The notes under the pieces are model-generated. The model worked only from the letters and a program-made list of their open reading frames with translations, was not told the origin of the DNA and made no database searches. From positions 1,584 to 65,583 of IMG/VR virus record IMGVR_UViG_3300031994_000095: DNA of 64,000 nt, one strand, 5' to 3'. How positions within the stretch are numbered: position 1 is the stretch's first letter; every line of letters starts with the position of its first letter. The position numbers were made by a program, and so were the translations under genes. This stretch comes from a virus. Taxonomy: Duplodnaviria; Caudoviricetes. This document shows, in pieces, positions 9,871 through 64,000 of the stretch.

Positions 9871-11034
9871 CTACTTGAAAAACTTGACTCGACCAAAAAT
9901 ATCTTCCACATCCCTCTCGCTCTTCCGCAAATACTTGAGCAGACTCGCCAAGTTCTTGTGACCGCTAACCACCATTATCTGACGCATCGGCACTCCTTCC
10001 TGATCGAGCAATGTACACAGAGTCCTCCGGCAAGTGTGGCTCGACACCATCTTCCATTTCGGCACTCGCTTCTGCACATACCCCTCGCCCTTCGACTCCC
10101 GCACCTCGACCATATCGTTGATCCCTGCCTTCATACACACGGTCTTGACCTCTCTGTTGAACACCACCTGGCCGACCTCTGGGGCTTTCCCTCCGTTGCG
10201 CCTCAATGCCGTCTTCAGCCGTGGGGACAACGGCAGCACAACCCTCTCGCCGGTCTTCCGCTGGATGTAACGGAACTTCCCGTCAACGATGTTGTCAAGG
10301 GTGAAGGTGGAGAAGTCCTCGAACCTCGCGCCGGTGTAACACCCGATGATGAGGAGGTCGCGCACCATCTTCTCCATCCCGTCCGTCAGTTCCAAGTTCC
10401 ATAACTTGTCAAGCTCCGTCTTGGTGAGGTACACGGAGTCGGTATCATTGGCTGGCTTCCTGAACTCGCGGAACTCCTCATTGGAATGGTACTTGAGTTT
10501 CAAGCCCTCCATCATCACCGCCTTGACCTTTGCGATGACGCTCCCTTGGTAGTTCTTGGAGTATTTCTCCGCGTTCATCCTCTCGACCAGACGGAAGTAC
10601 CACGCGGAGTCGATGCCGTCCCAGCCCGCAGATGTACCCATCAGACGGACGAGAAGGTTGTAGGTGTTGCGCCGTTGTCTCTTGGCGGGATTGTCCTTCG
10701 ATGCCCAATCATCGAAATATTGCCAAAATGAGGGGCGTTTCTTGGCATTATAGGCTGGAAGTGGGGTCTCGCTCCACTTGCCGTCCTTAACCCTCGCCAA
10801 AGCCTCGGAAATGGCTTTCTCGGACGAGAACTCGTCAAGGCAGGATTCGAGACCGATGCGGATGAGACGCAGGGCATTGTCCTTGGAGTATTCGCCCGTG
10901 CGCTTGCCGTTCCAATTCTTCGTCTTGGTGGTGATGCCAACGCTCTTCCTCCAGACCTTCCCGCGATGGGTGATGACCACACGGATCGGGGACTCCTCCC
11001 TGGAGGGGAAGACCAAATTGTAGTAGATGTTCAT
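9871..11034 (-). CDS. int: Tyrosine integrase
   Basis: Arm-binding N-terminus; YTGARFED (R), SHTCRR (HxxR), SGHK and KY. Confidence 0.92.
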   Translation of the reverse strand: MNIYYNLVFPSREESPIRVVITHRGKVWRKSVGITTKTKNWNGKRTGEYSKDNALRLIRIGLESCLDEFSSEKAISEALARVKDGKWSETPLPAYNAKKRPSFWQYFDDWASKDNPAKRQRRNTYNLLVRLMGTSAGWDGIDSAWYFRLVERMNAEKYSKNYQGSVIAKVKAVMMEGLKLKYHSNEEFREFRKPANDTDSVYLTKTELDKLWNLELTDGMEKMVRDLLIIGCYTGARFEDFSTFTLDNIVDGKFRYIQRKTGERVVLPLSPRLKTALRRNGGKAPEVGQVVFNREVKTVCMKAGINDMVEVRESKGEGYVQKRVPKWKMVSSHTCRRTLCTLLDQEGVPMRQIMVVSGHKNLASLLKYLRKSERDVEDIFGRVKFFK

Positions 11035-11368: not shown

Positions 11369-12004
11369 ATGAAACACGGACATTACTTCGTTCTTGATTC
11401 ACGATGGATGAAAAAGATGCCACTTTCAAACGAGAGGTGGAAGACTGTGCACCCTCCCTTTTTGCCTATATATGAGGTTTCTAATAAGGGTAGGGTAAGA
11501 ACCCTTGATGAAAAAGGGAATGTAAAGAGAATCAATAAGCAATCCCCCGATACCAAGGGTTACTTACGGGTAAACTTGCTTACAGAGAGTGGGGAGCGAA
11601 AGTGTGTCAAGGTGCATCGTTTAGTGGCAATGGCTTTTGTGCCCAACCCCGAGGGAAAGCCTACGATAGATCACATAAACGGGGACATTGCCAACAATGC
11701 TGATAGTAATCTCCGATGGGCGACCGTAAAGGAAAACAATAATAACCCTATCACTTGGGAAAGGTTCTTGGAGGCGAGAAGAAACCGAGAGAGAGCATAT
11801 ACTCTTGAGGTTGGGAGAATCGGTCAAAAAGTGCCTTACTATTGCCCGAACTTGCACGAGGCATCCTTATTCCTAAAGGCGGGAGAAGATGAGATTCACC
11901 ACGCCATAAAGCGATACGGAGTGTATTACACGAAAAGGAATGGGGTTGACTATTATGCAAAAATGGAGGGGACGGACAAGATGCCAGAAGAGACTTTATT
12001 CTGA
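11369..12004 (+). CDS. NUMOD4-HNH homing endonuclease
   Basis: YEVSNKGRVR, VHRLVAMAFVPNP and IDHINGDIANN..NLRW. Confidence 0.88.
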   Translation: MKHGHYFVLDSRWMKKMPLSNERWKTVHPPFLPIYEVSNKGRVRTLDEKGNVKRINKQSPDTKGYLRVNLLTESGERKCVKVHRLVAMAFVPNPEGKPTIDHINGDIANNADSNLRWATVKENNNNPITWERFLEARRNRERAYTLEVGRIGQKVPYYCPNLHEASLFLKAGEDEIHHAIKRYGVYYTKRNGVDYYAKMEGTDKMPEETLF

Positions 12005-13387: not shown

Positions 13388-14299
13388 TTATCTGAAAAGT
13401 GCCAGCGATTTTTCGTTCAATTTGACCTCACGGCGGCAAACATACCTCGAAGTCATAGCCGTTCCCGTGTGACCGAGAATATCTCGTATGTCCGTCAGGG
13501 GTGTGCCGTTCGCGCTCAAGTTCGTGGCGACACTGATTCGTGCCGAGTGCGAGGAGATGAATTTCCACTTCGGCCCTACCTCGTCCTTGCCACCCTTATG
13601 CACCTTGACTTGCTCGTCGATACCGGCACGCTTGCACAGTCGGCGTATCGTCTTGTTGAAGGTCGCAGTGTCCACCACCTTGCCGTTCGTTCGGAGCCAG
13701 CGCAACCGCGCCACCGTCCTGTTCGAGCAAGGGATTGATGCCGTTATGCCCGTTTTCTTCGACGTGTAGGTCAAGGTCGTGCCGTCCACGTTCTCCTCGG
13801 TCAGTTCGCGGATGTCGCTCAACCTCGCCCCCGTTTTCGTTCCGACAAGAAACTCGTTCAGCACGATTCGTTCGACAGTCGTTCGGGTGGGTACTCGTTC
13901 GAGTCGTTCGAGTTCTGATTCGTTCAGGTAGGTTTTCACGGGTGCTTCCCCTTTGAGTCGGAGGATGGTGGCGTAGTCCTTGCACGGGATCACCCCTTCG
14001 TCCTCGTATCTCCTGAGTAACGCAACCAGGGATGCCGCCACGGTCTTAGCGGAGGATGGGGCCAGGGACTGCCGGAGCTCGTCGCGGAGATTCATAACCC
14101 CGGCCCGTGTCAAGTCCGAAAAGTCCCGTATCTTGGCGTTACGGAGGTGTTTTGATATGGTGGCCGCCTGGAGCCCTGCGTGCTTCTGTACGGCCTCAAA
14201 AATCGTATCCATAGGCATTGTTAATTCATCCACCCGTTGCGATTCTCCCAAGCCTTGACGGACTTGATAGCTGCCGTCCTTGTTAGGCCGTTCTCGCAT
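13388..14299 (-). CDS. Second tyrosine recombinase (no arm domain)
   Basis: TGARLSD, SHSAR, ILGH and RY catalytic residues. The true start may be ~30 codons downstream. Confidence 0.88.
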   Translation of the reverse strand: MRERPNKDGSYQVRQGLGESQRVDELTMPMDTIFEAVQKHAGLQAATISKHLRNAKIRDFSDLTRAGVMNLRDELRQSLAPSSAKTVAASLVALLRRYEDEGVIPCKDYATILRLKGEAPVKTYLNESELERLERVPTRTTVERIVLNEFLVGTKTGARLSDIRELTEENVDGTTLTYTSKKTGITASIPCSNRTVARLRWLRTNGKVVDTATFNKTIRRLCKRAGIDEQVKVHKGGKDEVGPKWKFISSHSARISVATNLSANGTPLTDIRDILGHTGTAMTSRYVCRREVKLNEKSLALFR

Positions 14300-52202: not shown

Positions 52203-52925
52203 TTACAAGTATCTCCAAATGAAACCACCCGCCGTGTTTTGTTTGATTTTAGGATTAGCACATTTTAGTATGTTGCTCCATCCAAGGCCCAACTCTCGTG
52301 CTGCATCAGTGCCAGAAGTCCACTCTCTTATCAGTGTACCGTCGGGTGAATATTGCCCTATACGTTTGCATTTCTTTAACCTTATTTCTTCTGTTTGCTT
52401 CCTCCCCGTTAGGGCGCGCCTTATTTTCTCTCGGCTCTCCTCCGATAATGTGCGGCTCTTGTTTGACTCTATGAGTTTTTGCCTGTGCCACTCTGGTAGT
52501 TTTCTCCCCTTTGAGCGTTGATTCCCCATCATTGCTTGAGTCAAATGTTGCCTCGTTATGGGGTTAAGCGCGTTTTGGTGATGCGTACACCACCGAAGGT
52601 TATCTACTCTATTATTGTCTCGTACCGTGTCTATGTGGTCAACGCACGGGTAGTTATTGGGATTAGGGATAAAAGCCAAAGCAACAAGGCGATGTACAAT
52701 AAGGTGTATTGATTTTCTCCGAGTATATGGCCTCAAATCAACGCATAAATAGCCACCCTTGCAAGCGCGTGCCTTAATTATGTGTTGTCCGAATGTCCTT
52801 GGTGCATTTCCCCATCGGTTTCTTGCTATTATTCTTCTTGGGATGCTCCTAATGCGTCCGAGGTTAGATACCTCATACTTTTCTCTCAGTCCCTCAATTG
52901 GGATTGGTTTCCAAATTTCTTCCAT
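52203..52925 (-). CDS. NUMOD4-HNH-NUMOD3/NUMOD1 homing endonuclease
   Basis: YEVSNLGRIRS, VHRLVALAFIPNP, VDHID..R.NNRVDNLRW, and C-terminal AGGFIWRY. Confidence 0.9.
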   Translation of the reverse strand: MEEIWKPIPIEGLREKYEVSNLGRIRSIPRRIIARNRWGNAPRTFGQHIIKARACKGGYLCVDLRPYTRRKSIHLIVHRLVALAFIPNPNNYPCVDHIDTVRDNNRVDNLRWCTHHQNALNPITRQHLTQAMMGNQRSKGRKLPEWHRQKLIESNKSRTLSEESREKIRRALTGRKQTEEIRLKKCKRIGQYSPDGTLIREWTSGTDAARELGLGWSNILKCANPKIKQNTAGGFIWRYL

Positions 52926-60921: not shown

Positions 60922-61322
60922 TAGAATAAGTCTCCTTCTTCAAGGTCGGGCATATTGTTTAAGAACGTTGAAAAGTTCCGTAGGTATGCCCCCGTCTCTT
61001 CCCTGGTATCCACCTCTTGTCGGATGAGGGCAAGCAGTTGTTCCTTGGTGTACTTGCCTTTGGCGAGAAGGTTTCGTATGTGTTGTTTGTCCTTCTGCCC
61101 TTTACCCGTAGGTCGGTTGCCGTTGTTGGCATCCCGGCTTGGGTATGCGTTATACACCTCAAGTACATCCGCATCCTCATCGGAGGTTATGGTCTTTTGT
61201 GTTGGCCATTTGCTCTCCGCTTGGGCTTGCCAATCGGCGAGTATCTCGTCTATTGCGAGACCCGTCTGCTCTTGATAGAGTGTGGCAAGTCCATAGAGAA
61301 CGACCTTCTCGAATTGTGTCAT
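60921..61322 (-). CDS. Hypothetical replication-associated protein
   Basis: VYNAYP...YLRNFSTFLNN. Confidence 0.6.
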   Translation of the reverse strand: MTQFEKVVLYGLATLYQEQTGLAIDEILADWQAQAESKWPTQKTITSDEDADVLEVYNAYPSRDANNGNRPTGKGQKDKQHIRNLLAKGKYTKEQLLALIRQEVDTREETGAYLRNFSTFLNNMPDLEEGDLF

Positions 61323-61489
61323 AGTTTCTTGATGTCTGCCCAGTCGGGGATGGGTGTTTTGTCGAGGGCGACGTACTTGTCGCCGACCTTCTTACACTTG
61401 ACGGTTACTTTGATAACGTTCCCGTCCTGCCGTGCGTTCCACGATGCGAGGTAGTACACCTCTTTCTTGATGGGTTTCTTTGTTGCCAT
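61319..61489 (-). CDS. Hypothetical basic protein (56 aa)
   Basis: Manual translation; ATGA overlap. Confidence 0.5.
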   Translation of the reverse strand: MATKKPIKKEVYYLASWNARQDGNVIKVTVKCKKVGDKYVALDKTPIPDWADIKKL

Positions 61490-61491
61490 AT

Positions 61492-61746
61492 CTAAAAGTT
61501 ATTGATGTCGATTTCTTGGACGAAAGTCAACTTGCCACGATAGCCTCGCCTTGCAAGCTCTGCCATAAGGTCACGCGGTGTGAATTGGTCAAGGGGTTGT
61601 GTGCGCCTTGAGAGAAGGTCATCACCGATGCGCTTGACATTTTGGAGTGCCTTTTCGCCCGCACCGAACTTTACCATAGCCTCCTCAATGGTGTGGGTCT
61701 TGAGATAGTCATAGACCTCACAGTTGTTAAGTTTCTTTCGATTCAT
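61492..61746 (-). CDS. Hypothetical protein
   Basis: LDQFTPRDLMAELARRGYRGKL. Confidence 0.65.
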   Translation of the reverse strand: MNRKKLNNCEVYDYLKTHTIEEAMVKFGAGEKALQNVKRIGDDLLSRRTQPLDQFTPRDLMAELARRGYRGKLTFVQEIDINNF

Positions 61747-61770
61747 ATTAGATGTGTTTAGAAGTTTAGG

Positions 61771-61840
61771 AGGGGTGGCGGGACTCGAACCCGCACCTTA
61801 AATGTTCCATTTCGCCGGATGCATCACGGACTCCACCCCT
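61771..61840 (-). ncRNA. tRNA-like RNA with a 3-nt anticodon loop
   Basis: AGGGGTG/CACCCCT acceptor, AAATG-GAA-CATTT arm, AAGGT variable loop and GCGGG-TTCGAGT-CCCGC T arm. Confidence 0.6.
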
Positions 61841-61848
61841 CTGATTGT

Positions 61849-62589
61849 TTAACCTTTCTGCCATTCGGGGAAATGAACCCCAAGTGTGCCGAAAATCGTA
61901 GTCGGAGAATCGGGTGTCAGCAAGTACCAAAATCCGTTGGCAACGTGCAGACCTTCCCCATTGTCCATCCACTGGATCGTGAAGTCCGTCTGGCTACCGA
62001 GAAGGTTGTCCTTCGGACTCACACGAACGTGGTAGGTCATCTCCGCATTGAGCCTCGTACATCTCGCATACGCCACCGACAAGTCATCGGTAAAGGACAA
62101 CTCGGTGTAAGTCCTTTCTGCCGTCTTGTGTTCCACCTTGCCCGTGACCGTCATATCGAACACCAGGGCGATGCAGTCATAGATGGCATCCACGAGGTAG
62201 TTGGTATCATCCTCCGTGATGACAAGTTCCTGGTCAACGTGGAACGGCGGCTCGGAGAAGAGGTTTGCGGAATAGGCATCGGCTATCTTCGGTGCGGTGT
62301 ATTCTCCAAAGACCGTGTAAGTGCCGATGGGAAGGTCTATTGGTTCGTTGACCGTGACCGTGTAGATGTTCCCATTCTCCTTGGATGTGAGTTTCAGTGC
62401 CATTGTCCTTGACATCGTGGTGTTGTCGAGTACGGACTTGACCTCGGCATCGGATGCCTTTGTCATACTGCCGGACTGTACTTGCTTGATACCGATGGTG
62501 ACGGTGTTGACGGGTGTGGGGATGGAGGTCTCCTTGTTGCAGGATGCGAGTCCGAGGACTCCGATGAGAAGTGCTAAAACTTTCTTCAT
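61849..62589 (-). CDS. Lipoprotein
   Basis: Signal peptide II MKKVLALLIGVLGLAS-C. Confidence 0.75.
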   Translation of the reverse strand: MKKVLALLIGVLGLASCNKETSIPTPVNTVTIGIKQVQSGSMTKASDAEVKSVLDNTTMSRTMALKLTSKENGNIYTVTVNEPIDLPIGTYTVFGEYTAPKIADAYSANLFSEPPFHVDQELVITEDDTNYLVDAIYDCIALVFDMTVTGKVEHKTAERTYTELSFTDDLSVAYARCTRLNAEMTYHVRVSPKDNLLGSQTDFTIQWMDNGEGLHVANGFWYLLTPDSPTTIFGTLGVHFPEWQKG

Positions 62590-62668
62590 AACGTTTTGGT
62601 TTTGTGATGAATTGTTTGTAAATTAGTGTTGCACTAAACGTTATGATAGAAAGAGTTAGACTCTTGTT

Positions 62669-63127
62669 TTAGTCCAGAAACAACTTCATCTGGCTAATGA
62701 TCTCGCCAAGTTCCGATAATGTGCGATACTTTGATGTAAAGCACTCCATATCGTGCTTGGCGCAGTCCATTAAATACCGCTTCGCATACTCGTTGTTGGA
62801 TGCATCGTTGATGGGGACATAGGATGCTTTCTCGCCCGGAGCATTGGCTACACTCACGAACGCCCTGACCTTGCACTTTATCTCCTCACGTTCGACAGTG
62901 ACAACGATACTGCGAATGAGAGCCTTTGCTTGGTTGACTCTCCACGAATCGGCTGCCTTCTTGTCATCCCATTCAAAAATGGAATGTAGCACCGAGGAGT
63001 CGTCTTTCGACTCTTCCACGACTTTCTCTGCTTCGAGAGTTCCGTACTTTTCACGGATTCTCTCAAGTTCTTTCCCTGCTACTTCTGCGGGGACTTTGTA
63101 GATACCTTGAATTGTGTATGAATACAT
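62669..63127 (-). CDS. Accessory gene downstream of the GGY-NN array
   Basis: 152-aa ORF starting 15 nt after the array; LHSIFEWDDKKAADSWRVNQAKALIRSI. Confidence 0.7.
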   Translation of the reverse strand: MYSYTIQGIYKVPAEVAGKELERIREKYGTLEAEKVVEESKDDSSVLHSIFEWDDKKAADSWRVNQAKALIRSIVVTVEREEIKCKVRAFVSVANAPGEKASYVPINDASNNEYAKRYLMDCAKHDMECFTSKYRTLSELGEIISQMKLFLD

Positions 63128-63142
63128 AGTTATTGAAAATTA

Positions 63143-63555
63143 AAACAAGCCGTGACATACCGAGCCTTGCCGAGTCAAAACTGACCGTGCCCCTCCTGCC
63201 GGAACGTGCCTCGCCTTACCCCGCCACACCTTAACCAACCGCACCTTGCCATACCAAACCACTCCTGCCCCGCCATACCTTGCCACACCAAAACGGGACA
63301 GACCCGACCCCACCCCACCTTGCCATACCAGTCCTGCCGAAACTCGCCCAACCACGCCTGGCCTTACCCGACCGTGCCTCGCCGTACCTCTCCTGCCGAA
63401 CCAAACCCCGCCGTAACATACCTCGCGCTATCGCACCCCACCTGAACACACCTCGCCACTCCTGCCAGACCTAAACGGGCCAAACCTGAACGTGCCCTAC
63501 CTCGCCACGCCTCACCTCGCCAGACCAAAACGGAACTAACCCAACCATTCCTGCC
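63143..63555 (-). ncRNA. GGY-NN pentamer array in six GGCAGGA-delimited units (VIPR-like guide array)
   Basis: GGCAGGA at 63549, 63460, 63391, 63332, 63263 and 63194 (left coordinates). Spacings 89/69/59/69/69 all equal 9+5n. Confidence 0.85.
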
Positions 63556-63559
63556 GTGA

Positions 63560-64000
63560 TTAGTCGCTCACAACTTGGAACAAGCCGAACGAACCGCTGT
63601 TGCACTTCTCTGGTCTCCACTCTCCAACTCCGCAAGTGAATCCTGCCGTGTTGAGAAGAGTGAGCAACTTTTCGGGAGTGATGACACCTTCGAGGTACTG
63701 GATGGTGATGTTCGCCCACCATTCGGGATACTCGGCACGATAGCGAGGGGAAGAGGTCTTGCTGATGCCACCGACCTTGACCACATCGCAGCGCATCCTC
63801 GGCTCTCCGTGGATTTCGATGAGTCCCGTCTCACGGTCATCGGCAATAACGTGGAACTTGGTACGGAGGTCAACCATAACCTCTCCACAAGTCTTTCCTG
63901 CACGAACCATCGCGGACTTGAAACCGACTGCGGGGAATCCCGTGCGGGCACCATCGGAGAGATAGTAGAAAGTCTTGGCGTTCTCCTGCTCCGGCGTGGG
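63560..64000 (-). CDS. RAMP/Cas7-like (Vipr-like) protein, 5'-truncated by the window edge
   Basis: The frame is open to 64000: ...GFPAVGFKSAMVRAG...RMRCDVVKVG...RYRAEYPEW...GVGEWRPEK..GSFGLF. Has a P...K.A motif and a terminal Gly-rich loop. Confidence 0.7.
   Translation of the reverse strand, partial: PTPEQENAKTFYYLSDGARTGFPAVGFKSAMVRAGKTCGEVMVDLRTKFHVIADDRETGLIEIHGEPRMRCDVVKVGGISKTSSPRYRAEYPEWWANITIQYLEGVITPEKLLTLLNTAGFTCGVGEWRPEKCNSGSFGLFQVVSD

Follow-up and report, generated by a model that had tools for sequence, protein, structure and literature searches.

The window analysed in this work, a 64,000-nucleotide stretch covering bases 1584-65583 of the 65,583-base virus record IMGVR_UViG_3300031994_000095, raises the question of what is encoded between two genes whose PHROGs families, phrog_4652 upstream and phrog_15946 downstream, are both of unknown function. 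The two genes are separated by 430 bases, and this gap is filled by six units in which pairs of variable bases alternate with near-constant triplets. With a probability of roughly 0.9, we read the region as the guide-RNA array of a phage-encoded VIPR (Viral Interference Programmable Repeat) system, lying between the gene of the RAMP protein Vipr and a clade-specific accessory gene that encodes 152 amino acids (aa).

VIPR was characterised in E. coli and Pseudomonas phages and described in 2026 (10.64898/2026.04.26.720920; 10.64898/2026.04.26.720927). According to the first report, Vipr is a minimal RAMP protein of phages, built of an RRM core with a G-loop and a thumb, and its guide RNAs (vrRNAs) consist of 9-16 GGY/NN repeats (Y, pyrimidine; N, any base) followed by a conserved tail. 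The targets are double-stranded DNA, in which each NN is followed by one skipped base (the '1 nt skip rule'), mostly at the third position of codons; transcription is repressed on binding, for which no protospacer-adjacent motif (PAM) is required (10.64898/2026.04.26.720920). According to the structural report, cryo-electron microscopy revealed every third target base flipped out and one Vipr protomer per repeat, with G1 and G2 held by H17, D177, R138 and W178. The pyrimidine of GGY is held in a pocket that includes R179, and a purine at this place is reported as excluded in the Vipr of phage SUSP1 (10.64898/2026.04.26.720927).

Anatomy of the array

Read on the minus strand, window 63142-63555 is made up of six GGCAGGA-led units, the rest being pentamers of NN plus G[G/T]Y, 11-17 per unit. 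The features are as follows.

63549..63555, minus strand: first GGCAGGA junction, opening unit 1, 4 bases after the vipr stop codon
63467..63548, minus strand: vrRNA unit U1, 17 NN, obtained by splitting the minus strand at GGCAGGA
63398..63466, minus strand: junction and U2, 13 NN, with two adjacent degenerate triplets (GAT, CGC)
63339..63397, minus strand: junction and U3, 11 NN, split at GGCAGGA in the same way
63270..63338, minus strand: junction and U4, 13 NN, which read as NNx would spell an excisionase/AlpA-type helix-turn-helix (HTH) motif
63201..63269, minus strand: junction and U5, 13 NN, again split at GGCAGGA
63142..63200, minus strand: junction and U6, 11 NN, with triplets that decay toward the 3' end (GAC, GTC, GTT, AAT)
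63555-63549, 63466-63460, 63397-63391, 63338-63332, 63269-63263 and 63200-63194, minus strand, read 5' to 3': the GGCAGGA copies

The original prediction had decoded six NN strings from this region by eye, and all six (6/6) are identical to the strings extracted by script, with 17, 13, 11, 13, 13 and 11 dinucleotides in U1 to U6. Its statement that every unit is different is borne out as well: all six units differ, and they specify 34, 26, 22, 26, 26 and 22 bases, respectively. The 73 triplets comprise 32 GGT, 23 GGC, 12 GTT, 2 GTC and one each of GAT, CGC, GAC and AAT; GGY thus makes up 55/73 and G[G/T]Y 69/73. When the whole 65,583-base genome was scanned on both strands for at least eight such triplets in ten successive 5-base steps, the array was the only region found, and the pentamer pattern is far beyond chance. 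Tandem Repeats Finder returned only short period-10 and period-15 rows within the array, since the units are not copies of each other.

Neighbouring units abut via a single base (GGC-A-GGA), by which the register shifts by one, and only seven bases are constant between units. No conserved 3' tail or pseudoknot was found after U6 or between the units. The folding of the array RNA showed no excess over shuffled sequence (z +0.53), as expected of a guide that is held by protein. No Rfam family covers the array, and the search of 61000-64000 returned just two matches, one tRNA-like and below threshold, the other to a snoRNA and due to chance. Nothing useful on pentanucleotide repeats in bacteriophage turned up in the literature.

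The upstream gene and Vipr

The array follows directly on the upstream gene, which runs across the end of the record.

63560..64000, minus strand: vipr, C-terminal 146 codons and stop; the N-terminal 61 codons lie across the circular junction, contig bases 2-328

The ends of the record repeat one another over 145 bases with at most two differences (window 63856-64000 corresponds to contig bases 1-145), indicating that the genome is circular or circularly permuted. One of the differences within the end repeat alters a Vipr residue (Asn or Tyr), and the assembly may mix two variants.

A phmmer search with the Vipr fragment of the window matched PDB entry 36pp_D, 'SUSP1 Vipr protein', with E 5.8e-6, and the profile of the upstream-gene family (A2) matched one solved structure, the same chain D of 36pp, with E 1.9e-14. 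In hhalign, comparison of the family profile with Vipr from a Felixounavirus of SUSP1-like gene order, Shigella phage Z31, gave a probability of 98%. The window protein aligns with SUSP1 residues 135-181; here, the thumb residue R138 of SUSP1 is matched by Arg, and the G-loop D177-W178-R179 by E-W-R. An AF2 model of a homologue from a related locus (L004, pLDDT 89.9) gave 25 Foldseek matches at E ≤ 0.001 (8.5e-5 to 1e-3), all of them RAMP subunits of CRISPR effectors, mostly of the Csm3/Cmr4 type and also Cas7-11 and type VII. On these sequence and model comparisons, the upstream gene is identified as encoding a Vipr RAMP protein. Both vipr and the partner gene downstream of the array are intact open frames, and neither of the two proteins matched a Pfam family. 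Vipr homologues were found in 36 records of isolated phages, of which 27 are Mycobacterium and 5 Gordonia phages. In the Mycobacterium and Gordonia phage records, all of these homologues are annotated as hypothetical proteins.

The partner gene and its linkage to vipr and the array

On the other side of the array lies the gene of the 152-aa protein.

62669..63127, minus strand: conserved partner gene of 152 aa (phrog_15946, E 4.8e-19)

Homologues of the 152-aa protein were used to fetch 35 viral loci from IMG/VR. Arrays were detected in 25/35 of these loci by a simple scan and in 27/35 by a stricter caller, and a gene of the upstream vipr family adjoins the 152-aa gene in at least 21/35. The array is placed either between the vipr family gene and the 152-aa gene, as in the window, or just after the pair. 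Outside the window genome, 165 of the 166 called guides are on the strand of the 152-aa gene. The addresses are hardly ever shared, 160/171 guide strings in the clade being distinct. The one-base junction is also a property of the clade: 81 out of 136 adjacent guide pairs are one base apart, and such junctions occur in 25/29 loci with called guides. The common form is GGCAGGC (53/81), and GGCAGGA accounts for only 2/81, yet it is GGCAGGA that is found in all six copies of the window. The association extends to an isolated phage, Gordonia phage ODay (L041), in which vipr and a gene of the 152-aa type are genes 19 and 20, with three guides called around the pair. The pair is flanked in ODay by the tail assembly chaperone genes on one side and by the tape measure gene on the other.

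The 152-aa gene is likely the vipr-accessory (vap) gene of this clade. The AF2 model of the protein reached a pLDDT of 92.8, and no PDB match at E ≤ 0.001 was obtained with Foldseek; a wide VIA-align search gave Z ≤ 4.5, confined to the C-terminal helices, so that no solved fold was assigned. In the ESM Atlas, the protein fell among viral hypothetical clusters only, one of them labelled DUF4494. The comparison with vap1 of the SUSP1 type gave an hhalign probability of 0.1%, and the two are unrelated.

Dinucleotides are probably read with one skipped base

The reading rule was examined within the clade. For this purpose, 141 distinct guides of at least nine dinucleotides were compared with 247 kb of sequence (the window genome and 37 loci, arrays masked), and the number of guides with a match at or above a given fraction was set against 20 shuffle sets.

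Skip 0: at ≥0.85, 2 guides observed and a shuffle mean of 0.9; at ≥0.9, 0 and 0.05
Skip 1: at ≥0.85, 5 guides observed and a shuffle mean of 0.7; at ≥0.9, 2 and 0.1
Skip 2: at ≥0.85, 0 guides observed and a shuffle mean of 1.1; at ≥0.9, 0 and 0.05
Skip 3: at ≥0.85, 1 guide observed and a shuffle mean of 0.8; at ≥0.9, 0 and 0.0

None of the 20 shuffle sets reached the counts at skip 1, and skips 0, 2 and 3 remained at shuffle level. The original prediction had proposed that the strings are gapped addresses of the form NNx; this coincides with the published 1 nt skip rule, and the excess of matches in the clade appears at skip 1 only. It had further suggested that ignoring the codon wobble position could make recognition resistant to synonymous escape. 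The same idea is found in the literature, where the skipped bases are placed on the third codon position (10.64898/2026.04.26.720920) and codon periodicity is stated to prevent mutational escape (10.64898/2026.10.15.759431).

The clearest individual matches concern another vipr gene. A guide common to loci L002 and L003 (L002:2024-2081, L003:1952-2009) matches the vipr gene of L017 at 20/22, and a related guide of L009 (L009:2105-2157) matches the same site at 17/20, both in codon phase 0; the matched stretch, L017:2214-2245, covers the peptide of the thumb region. It looks as if one VIPR system were directed against another, which echoes published vrRNAs that are aimed at other VIPR systems; rival phages, satellites and other VIPR systems have been reported as natural targets (10.64898/2026.04.26.720920). 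Of the family target sites examined (guide matches of 0.83-0.94), 5/5 are in wobble phase, with a frame of 173-262 aa open on one of the two strands; this is a soft point because long spurious frames are common in GC-rich DNA. Two guides find their best NNx match within the 5-kb locus that encodes them. The guide L018:1604-1666 matches L018:1236-1270 (minus strand) at 20/24, in wobble phase of a 226-aa open frame, and the guide L012:2957-3009 matches L012:2735-2763 (minus strand) at 17/20, in wobble phase of a 173-aa open frame. These own-locus matches could be due to chance or to self-regulation.

For the window genome itself, a few checks by eye had found no self-target, and this holds exhaustively: with the genome circularised, all six guides stay below 80% whether 0, 1 or 2 bases are skipped. 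The best NNx self-matches of U1 to U6 were 24/34, 18/26, 15/22, 18/26, 17/26 and 16/22, the highest fraction being 0.73 (U6), followed by 0.71 for U1. Contiguous and NNxx spacings gave self-matches no better than NNx, and NNxxx found the array only. The 24/34 self-match of U1 lies at contig bases ~510-559 on the plus strand, upstream of vipr and outside the window. Its value was reached by 1/200 shuffles.

Target searches for the six guides

Sequence collections were scanned with exact seeds of 8-11 dinucleotides (16-22 specified bases), after which the full guide was scored on the fetched DNA. The seed extensions were compatible with chance for all guides except U4. For IMG/VR, dinucleotides 3-11 of U2 gave 0 matches and dinucleotides 1-8 gave 22 (best 20/26). 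The single match to dinucleotides 2-9 of U3 extended to 16/22, which is the seed only, and 23 matches to dinucleotides 5-12 of U1 reached 23/34 at best. U5 (dinucleotides 3-10) was found 36 times with a best score of 20/26, and U6 (dinucleotides 1-8) 13 times, 9 of these reaching 0.8 with ~6 expected by chance. U4 (dinucleotides 3-10) returned four matches, three of which are one identical sequence at 21/26. This 21/26 site was rejected as chance, because within its 568-aa open frame the skipped base falls on the second codon position. In the JGI metagenomes, dinucleotides 4-13 of U1 gave one match (23/34).

In a collection of genomes from 185,579 species, U3 at full length gave 0 matches. Dinucleotides 2-11 of U5 hit one orthologous locus in four Sphingobacterium genomes at 21/26 and in phase. 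The site (1498-1535 in each of the four fetched loci, L146-L149) belongs to a 491-aa lipoprotein gene, in its signal-peptide/lipobox region, and the wobble bases differ between the species. It is probably a chance match and a weak lead, from the host phylum Bacteroidota. By our own estimate, a 20-base seed meets ~1 locus in this collection by chance, so that the match count alone means little.

U4 also met one locus in this collection, at 24/26, in Rhizobium sp. BK650. Among the six flanking bases, 4/6 match (~0.04, binomial, calculated by hand). The site is in codon phase inside an HTH gene of the excisionase family (HTH_17, E 9.2e-11; Phage_AlpA, E 1.2e-6), it falls within the HTH domain match, and a CHC2 zinc-finger primase gene follows. 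Close homologues of the gene carry the source name 'excisionase family DNA binding protein', and the homologues found were all close Rhizobium-type proteins, with no rumen candidate among them. Judged from this match, U4 appears to spell a conserved motif of the excisionase/AlpA-type gene class, and it is the best target lead. If the reading is right, the real target of U4 would be a gene of the excisionase/AlpA type, carried by an element of the host that this phage infects.

Variation, RNA, habitat and genome surroundings

At least part of the stretch was found in 24 public sequencing runs, mostly from sheep and cattle gut, two of which may be the source sample. In one DNA run (X9), a contig follows window 62150-63134 with 37/985 differences and resumes at 63549 with 8/449 differences; in between, 486 other letters replace the 414-base array of the window. 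Since the array is replaced between flanks that are 96-98% identical, arrays are exchanged between phages. Contigs of a further run (X5) leave the window at 63172 and 63544, and their loose ends, inspected by eye as reverse complement, run on as different triplets spaced 5 bases apart. In two metatranscriptome runs, both from a single sample, contigs occurred that are 100% identical to 63374-63706, 63407-63557 and 62852-63185.

By PHROGs annotation, the phage is tailed: terminase, portal, capsid and tape measure are all encoded, together with two integrases and a CI-like repressor. The phage, with its genome of 65.6 kb from sheep and cattle gut samples, is temperate-looking. The array is inside a minus-strand block that encodes Erf, a clamp-like protein, a primase-helicase and RuvC. 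The genes lack Shine-Dalgarno sequences before their starts, and the partner gene has its closest homologue among genomes, at 45% identity, in a metagenome-assembled genome of an uncultured Bacteroidales; together, these point weakly to a Bacteroidales host. The large terminase found only a 40%-identical fragment among genomes, in an Ihubacter genome.

Some further features of the surroundings were recorded.

9871-11034 (minus strand), 13388-14299 (minus strand), 11369-12004 (plus strand) and 52203-52925 (minus strand): two tyrosine-integrase genes and two HNH endonuclease genes
61770-61840, minus strand: tRNA-like match of 27.1 bits against an Rfam cut-off of 29; ARAGORN found no tRNA in the window
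61849-62589, minus strand: predicted lipoprotein gene of 246 aa directly after the partner gene, with a signal peptide ending in a Cys lipobox

The paired integrases, ~2.3 kb apart, could mark an inserted element. The predicted lipoprotein belongs to no PHROG or Pfam family.

Proposed mechanism and competing explanations

In the proposed mechanism, the operon would be transcribed on the minus strand and the array RNA would be processed into six vrRNAs. Vipr protomers would bind one per pentamer, hold the GGY triplet (here also GTT) and display the pair of variable bases. Pairing of the six NN strings with double-stranded DNA targets would then follow the form NNx, with the skip on codon wobble positions, and the resulting Vipr filament would silence genes of competing mobile elements by blocking their transcription. 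The one-base spacer GGC-A-GGA, which would shift the register by one from unit to unit, matches the 'staggered' vrRNA arrays of the literature; according to the legend of Fig. S18, vrRNAs overlap by 1 nt in these, the end of one being the start of the next (10.64898/2026.04.26.720920).

Several observations weigh against a working VIPR array at this locus. The first triplet of every unit is GGA, with a purine in the third position, and 12/73 triplets are GTT instead of GGY. At the position of SUSP1 H17, the contact of G1, the window phage has Asn, and the family as a whole has H, N, Q or E. The conserved 3' tail and pseudoknot of type II VIPR are both absent. No secure natural target of U1 to U6 was found in the exact-seed scans of IMG/VR, JGI metagenomes and GTDB genomes. 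For U4, a Rhizobium genome cannot be the phage's rival, so that this match indicates a target class only, and sampled Bacteroidales genomes contained no site with three or fewer mismatches (0/331 and 0/151). Finally, the contigs from the RNA libraries are compatible with transcription but no proof of it, and the array middle, 63206-63339, had no cover in the two RNA runs.

An unlikely variant of the VIPR reading is that the array stays uncut and that the A spacer, as a break in the register, marks where one Vipr filament stops and another begins along a single transcript of ~410 nt. If this were true, a particle would have six addresses and could be bound to several sites in a competitor genome simultaneously; a nuclease, a ribozyme and a tail would be unneeded, and the partner protein of unknown fold would serve assembly.

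It is distinctly improbable that the VIPR array of this locus is decayed or an orphan, with homology to vrRNA arrays but no function left in this phage. Decay would account for the degenerate triplets in U2 and U6, the GGA start triplets, the Asn at the H17 position and the failure to find a secure target. However, the vipr and partner frames are intact, the G-loop and thumb residues are kept, G[G/T]Y is retained in 69 of the 73 triplets, and related arrays are replaced and not eroded.

Even less probable is a protein-titrating or attenuator RNA of the TRAP type, in which one subunit would bind each triplet and the NN would be mere spacers. TRAP-binding RNA, such as the Bacillus trp leader, has at least 11 conserved triplets with two-base spacers, one triplet per protein subunit; TRAP itself forms a tryptophan-sensing ring, and there is no information in the spacers of its RNA. 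The units of the window share this geometry of triplets, 2-base spacers and at least 11 triplets per unit. The neighbouring protein, however, is a Vipr RAMP and not a TRAP-like ring, and spacers without function would neither produce an excess of in-phase gene matches specific to skip 1 nor be swapped wholesale between near-identical phages.

An element that acts at the DNA level and not as a guide (G-quadruplex DNA, a packaging site, or a G-rich origin of replication or R-loop site) can be set aside almost entirely: the transcribed strand is strongly G-rich and the array lies within a block of replication and recombination genes, but a strict 5-base register with free NN, the co-orientation with genes (165/166 guides) and the position beside vipr in phages of unrelated background (Gordonia, Mycobacterium, Felixounavirus) point to an RNA partner of Vipr, and for a packaging site the large terminase gene is ~36 kb away. 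A TRAP-like sponge RNA, an R-loop origin or G-quadruplex and a small-terminase/pac site had each been candidates, and were dropped once the upstream-gene profile matched the SUSP1 Vipr structure.

With the VIPR reading preferred, six natural guides are at hand that are directly testable, in a clade whose array architecture and accessory protein are unstudied. The reading predicts that U4 is directed at the recognition-helix region in a gene of the excisionase/AlpA type; such a target would agree with a theme of the published work, the immobilising of rival elements. The case also shows that raw sequence by itself is enough to recover the NNx code.

Comparison with known systems

The Cas7 backbone of class 1 CRISPR-Cas resembles the VIPR system in its RAMP fold, in having one protomer per RNA period and in thumbs by which the duplex of guide and target is interrupted at regular intervals. 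The period differs: in Cas7 it is 6 with 5 bases paired, whereas in VIPR 5 RNA bases correspond to 3 DNA bases, with 2 paired. A CRISPR-Cas repeat-spacer array (identical direct repeats of ~24-40 bases), cas genes and an adaptation module are all absent from the window locus, and no cas family was found among 59 + 6 proteins scanned against PHROGs. In contrast to TRAP and its leader RNA, the spacers of the window array would be the information and the protein would form a RAMP filament.

The published diversity of VIPR comprises seven types and six vap genes, with arrays called from at least four repeat units (10.64898/2026.04.26.720920). The closest comparison is type II, represented by Escherichia phage SUSP1 and a Pseudomonas fulva prophage. 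The window locus shares with it a Vipr RAMP beside GGY/NN arrays with hypervariable NN, the conserved thumb Arg and the acid-Trp-Arg of the G-loop, the location in a phage, the lack of self-targets and the reading with one skipped base, the last of which is supported within the clade of the window. Other properties differ. Type II vrRNAs are separate genes of ~100 nt, whereas the units of the window abut via a one-base spacer, and the 9-16 repeats reported compare with units of up to 17 NN here. Units that open with GGA and the frequent GTT are likewise unlike type II. The type II accessory is vap1, and the accessory of the window is unrelated to it and has no match to a solved fold. The source, a sheep or cattle gut phage probably of Bacteroidales, also sets the locus apart from the E. 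coli and Pseudomonas systems. As regards the staggered vrRNA arrays, which could be compared by the legend of Fig. S18 only, a GGC-AG end and a GGA start that share one G fit the description.

This kind of system is already published (2026), and the locus is not categorically new. It is a new member of this kind, with a tail-less staggered array, the rare junction form, the GGA and GTT triplets and an accessory of unknown fold. To the known systems, the locus thus adds a complete VIPR system in a sheep/cattle-gut phage with a tail-less, register-shifted array form, and a partner protein of unknown fold found alongside vipr in at least 21/35 related viral loci.

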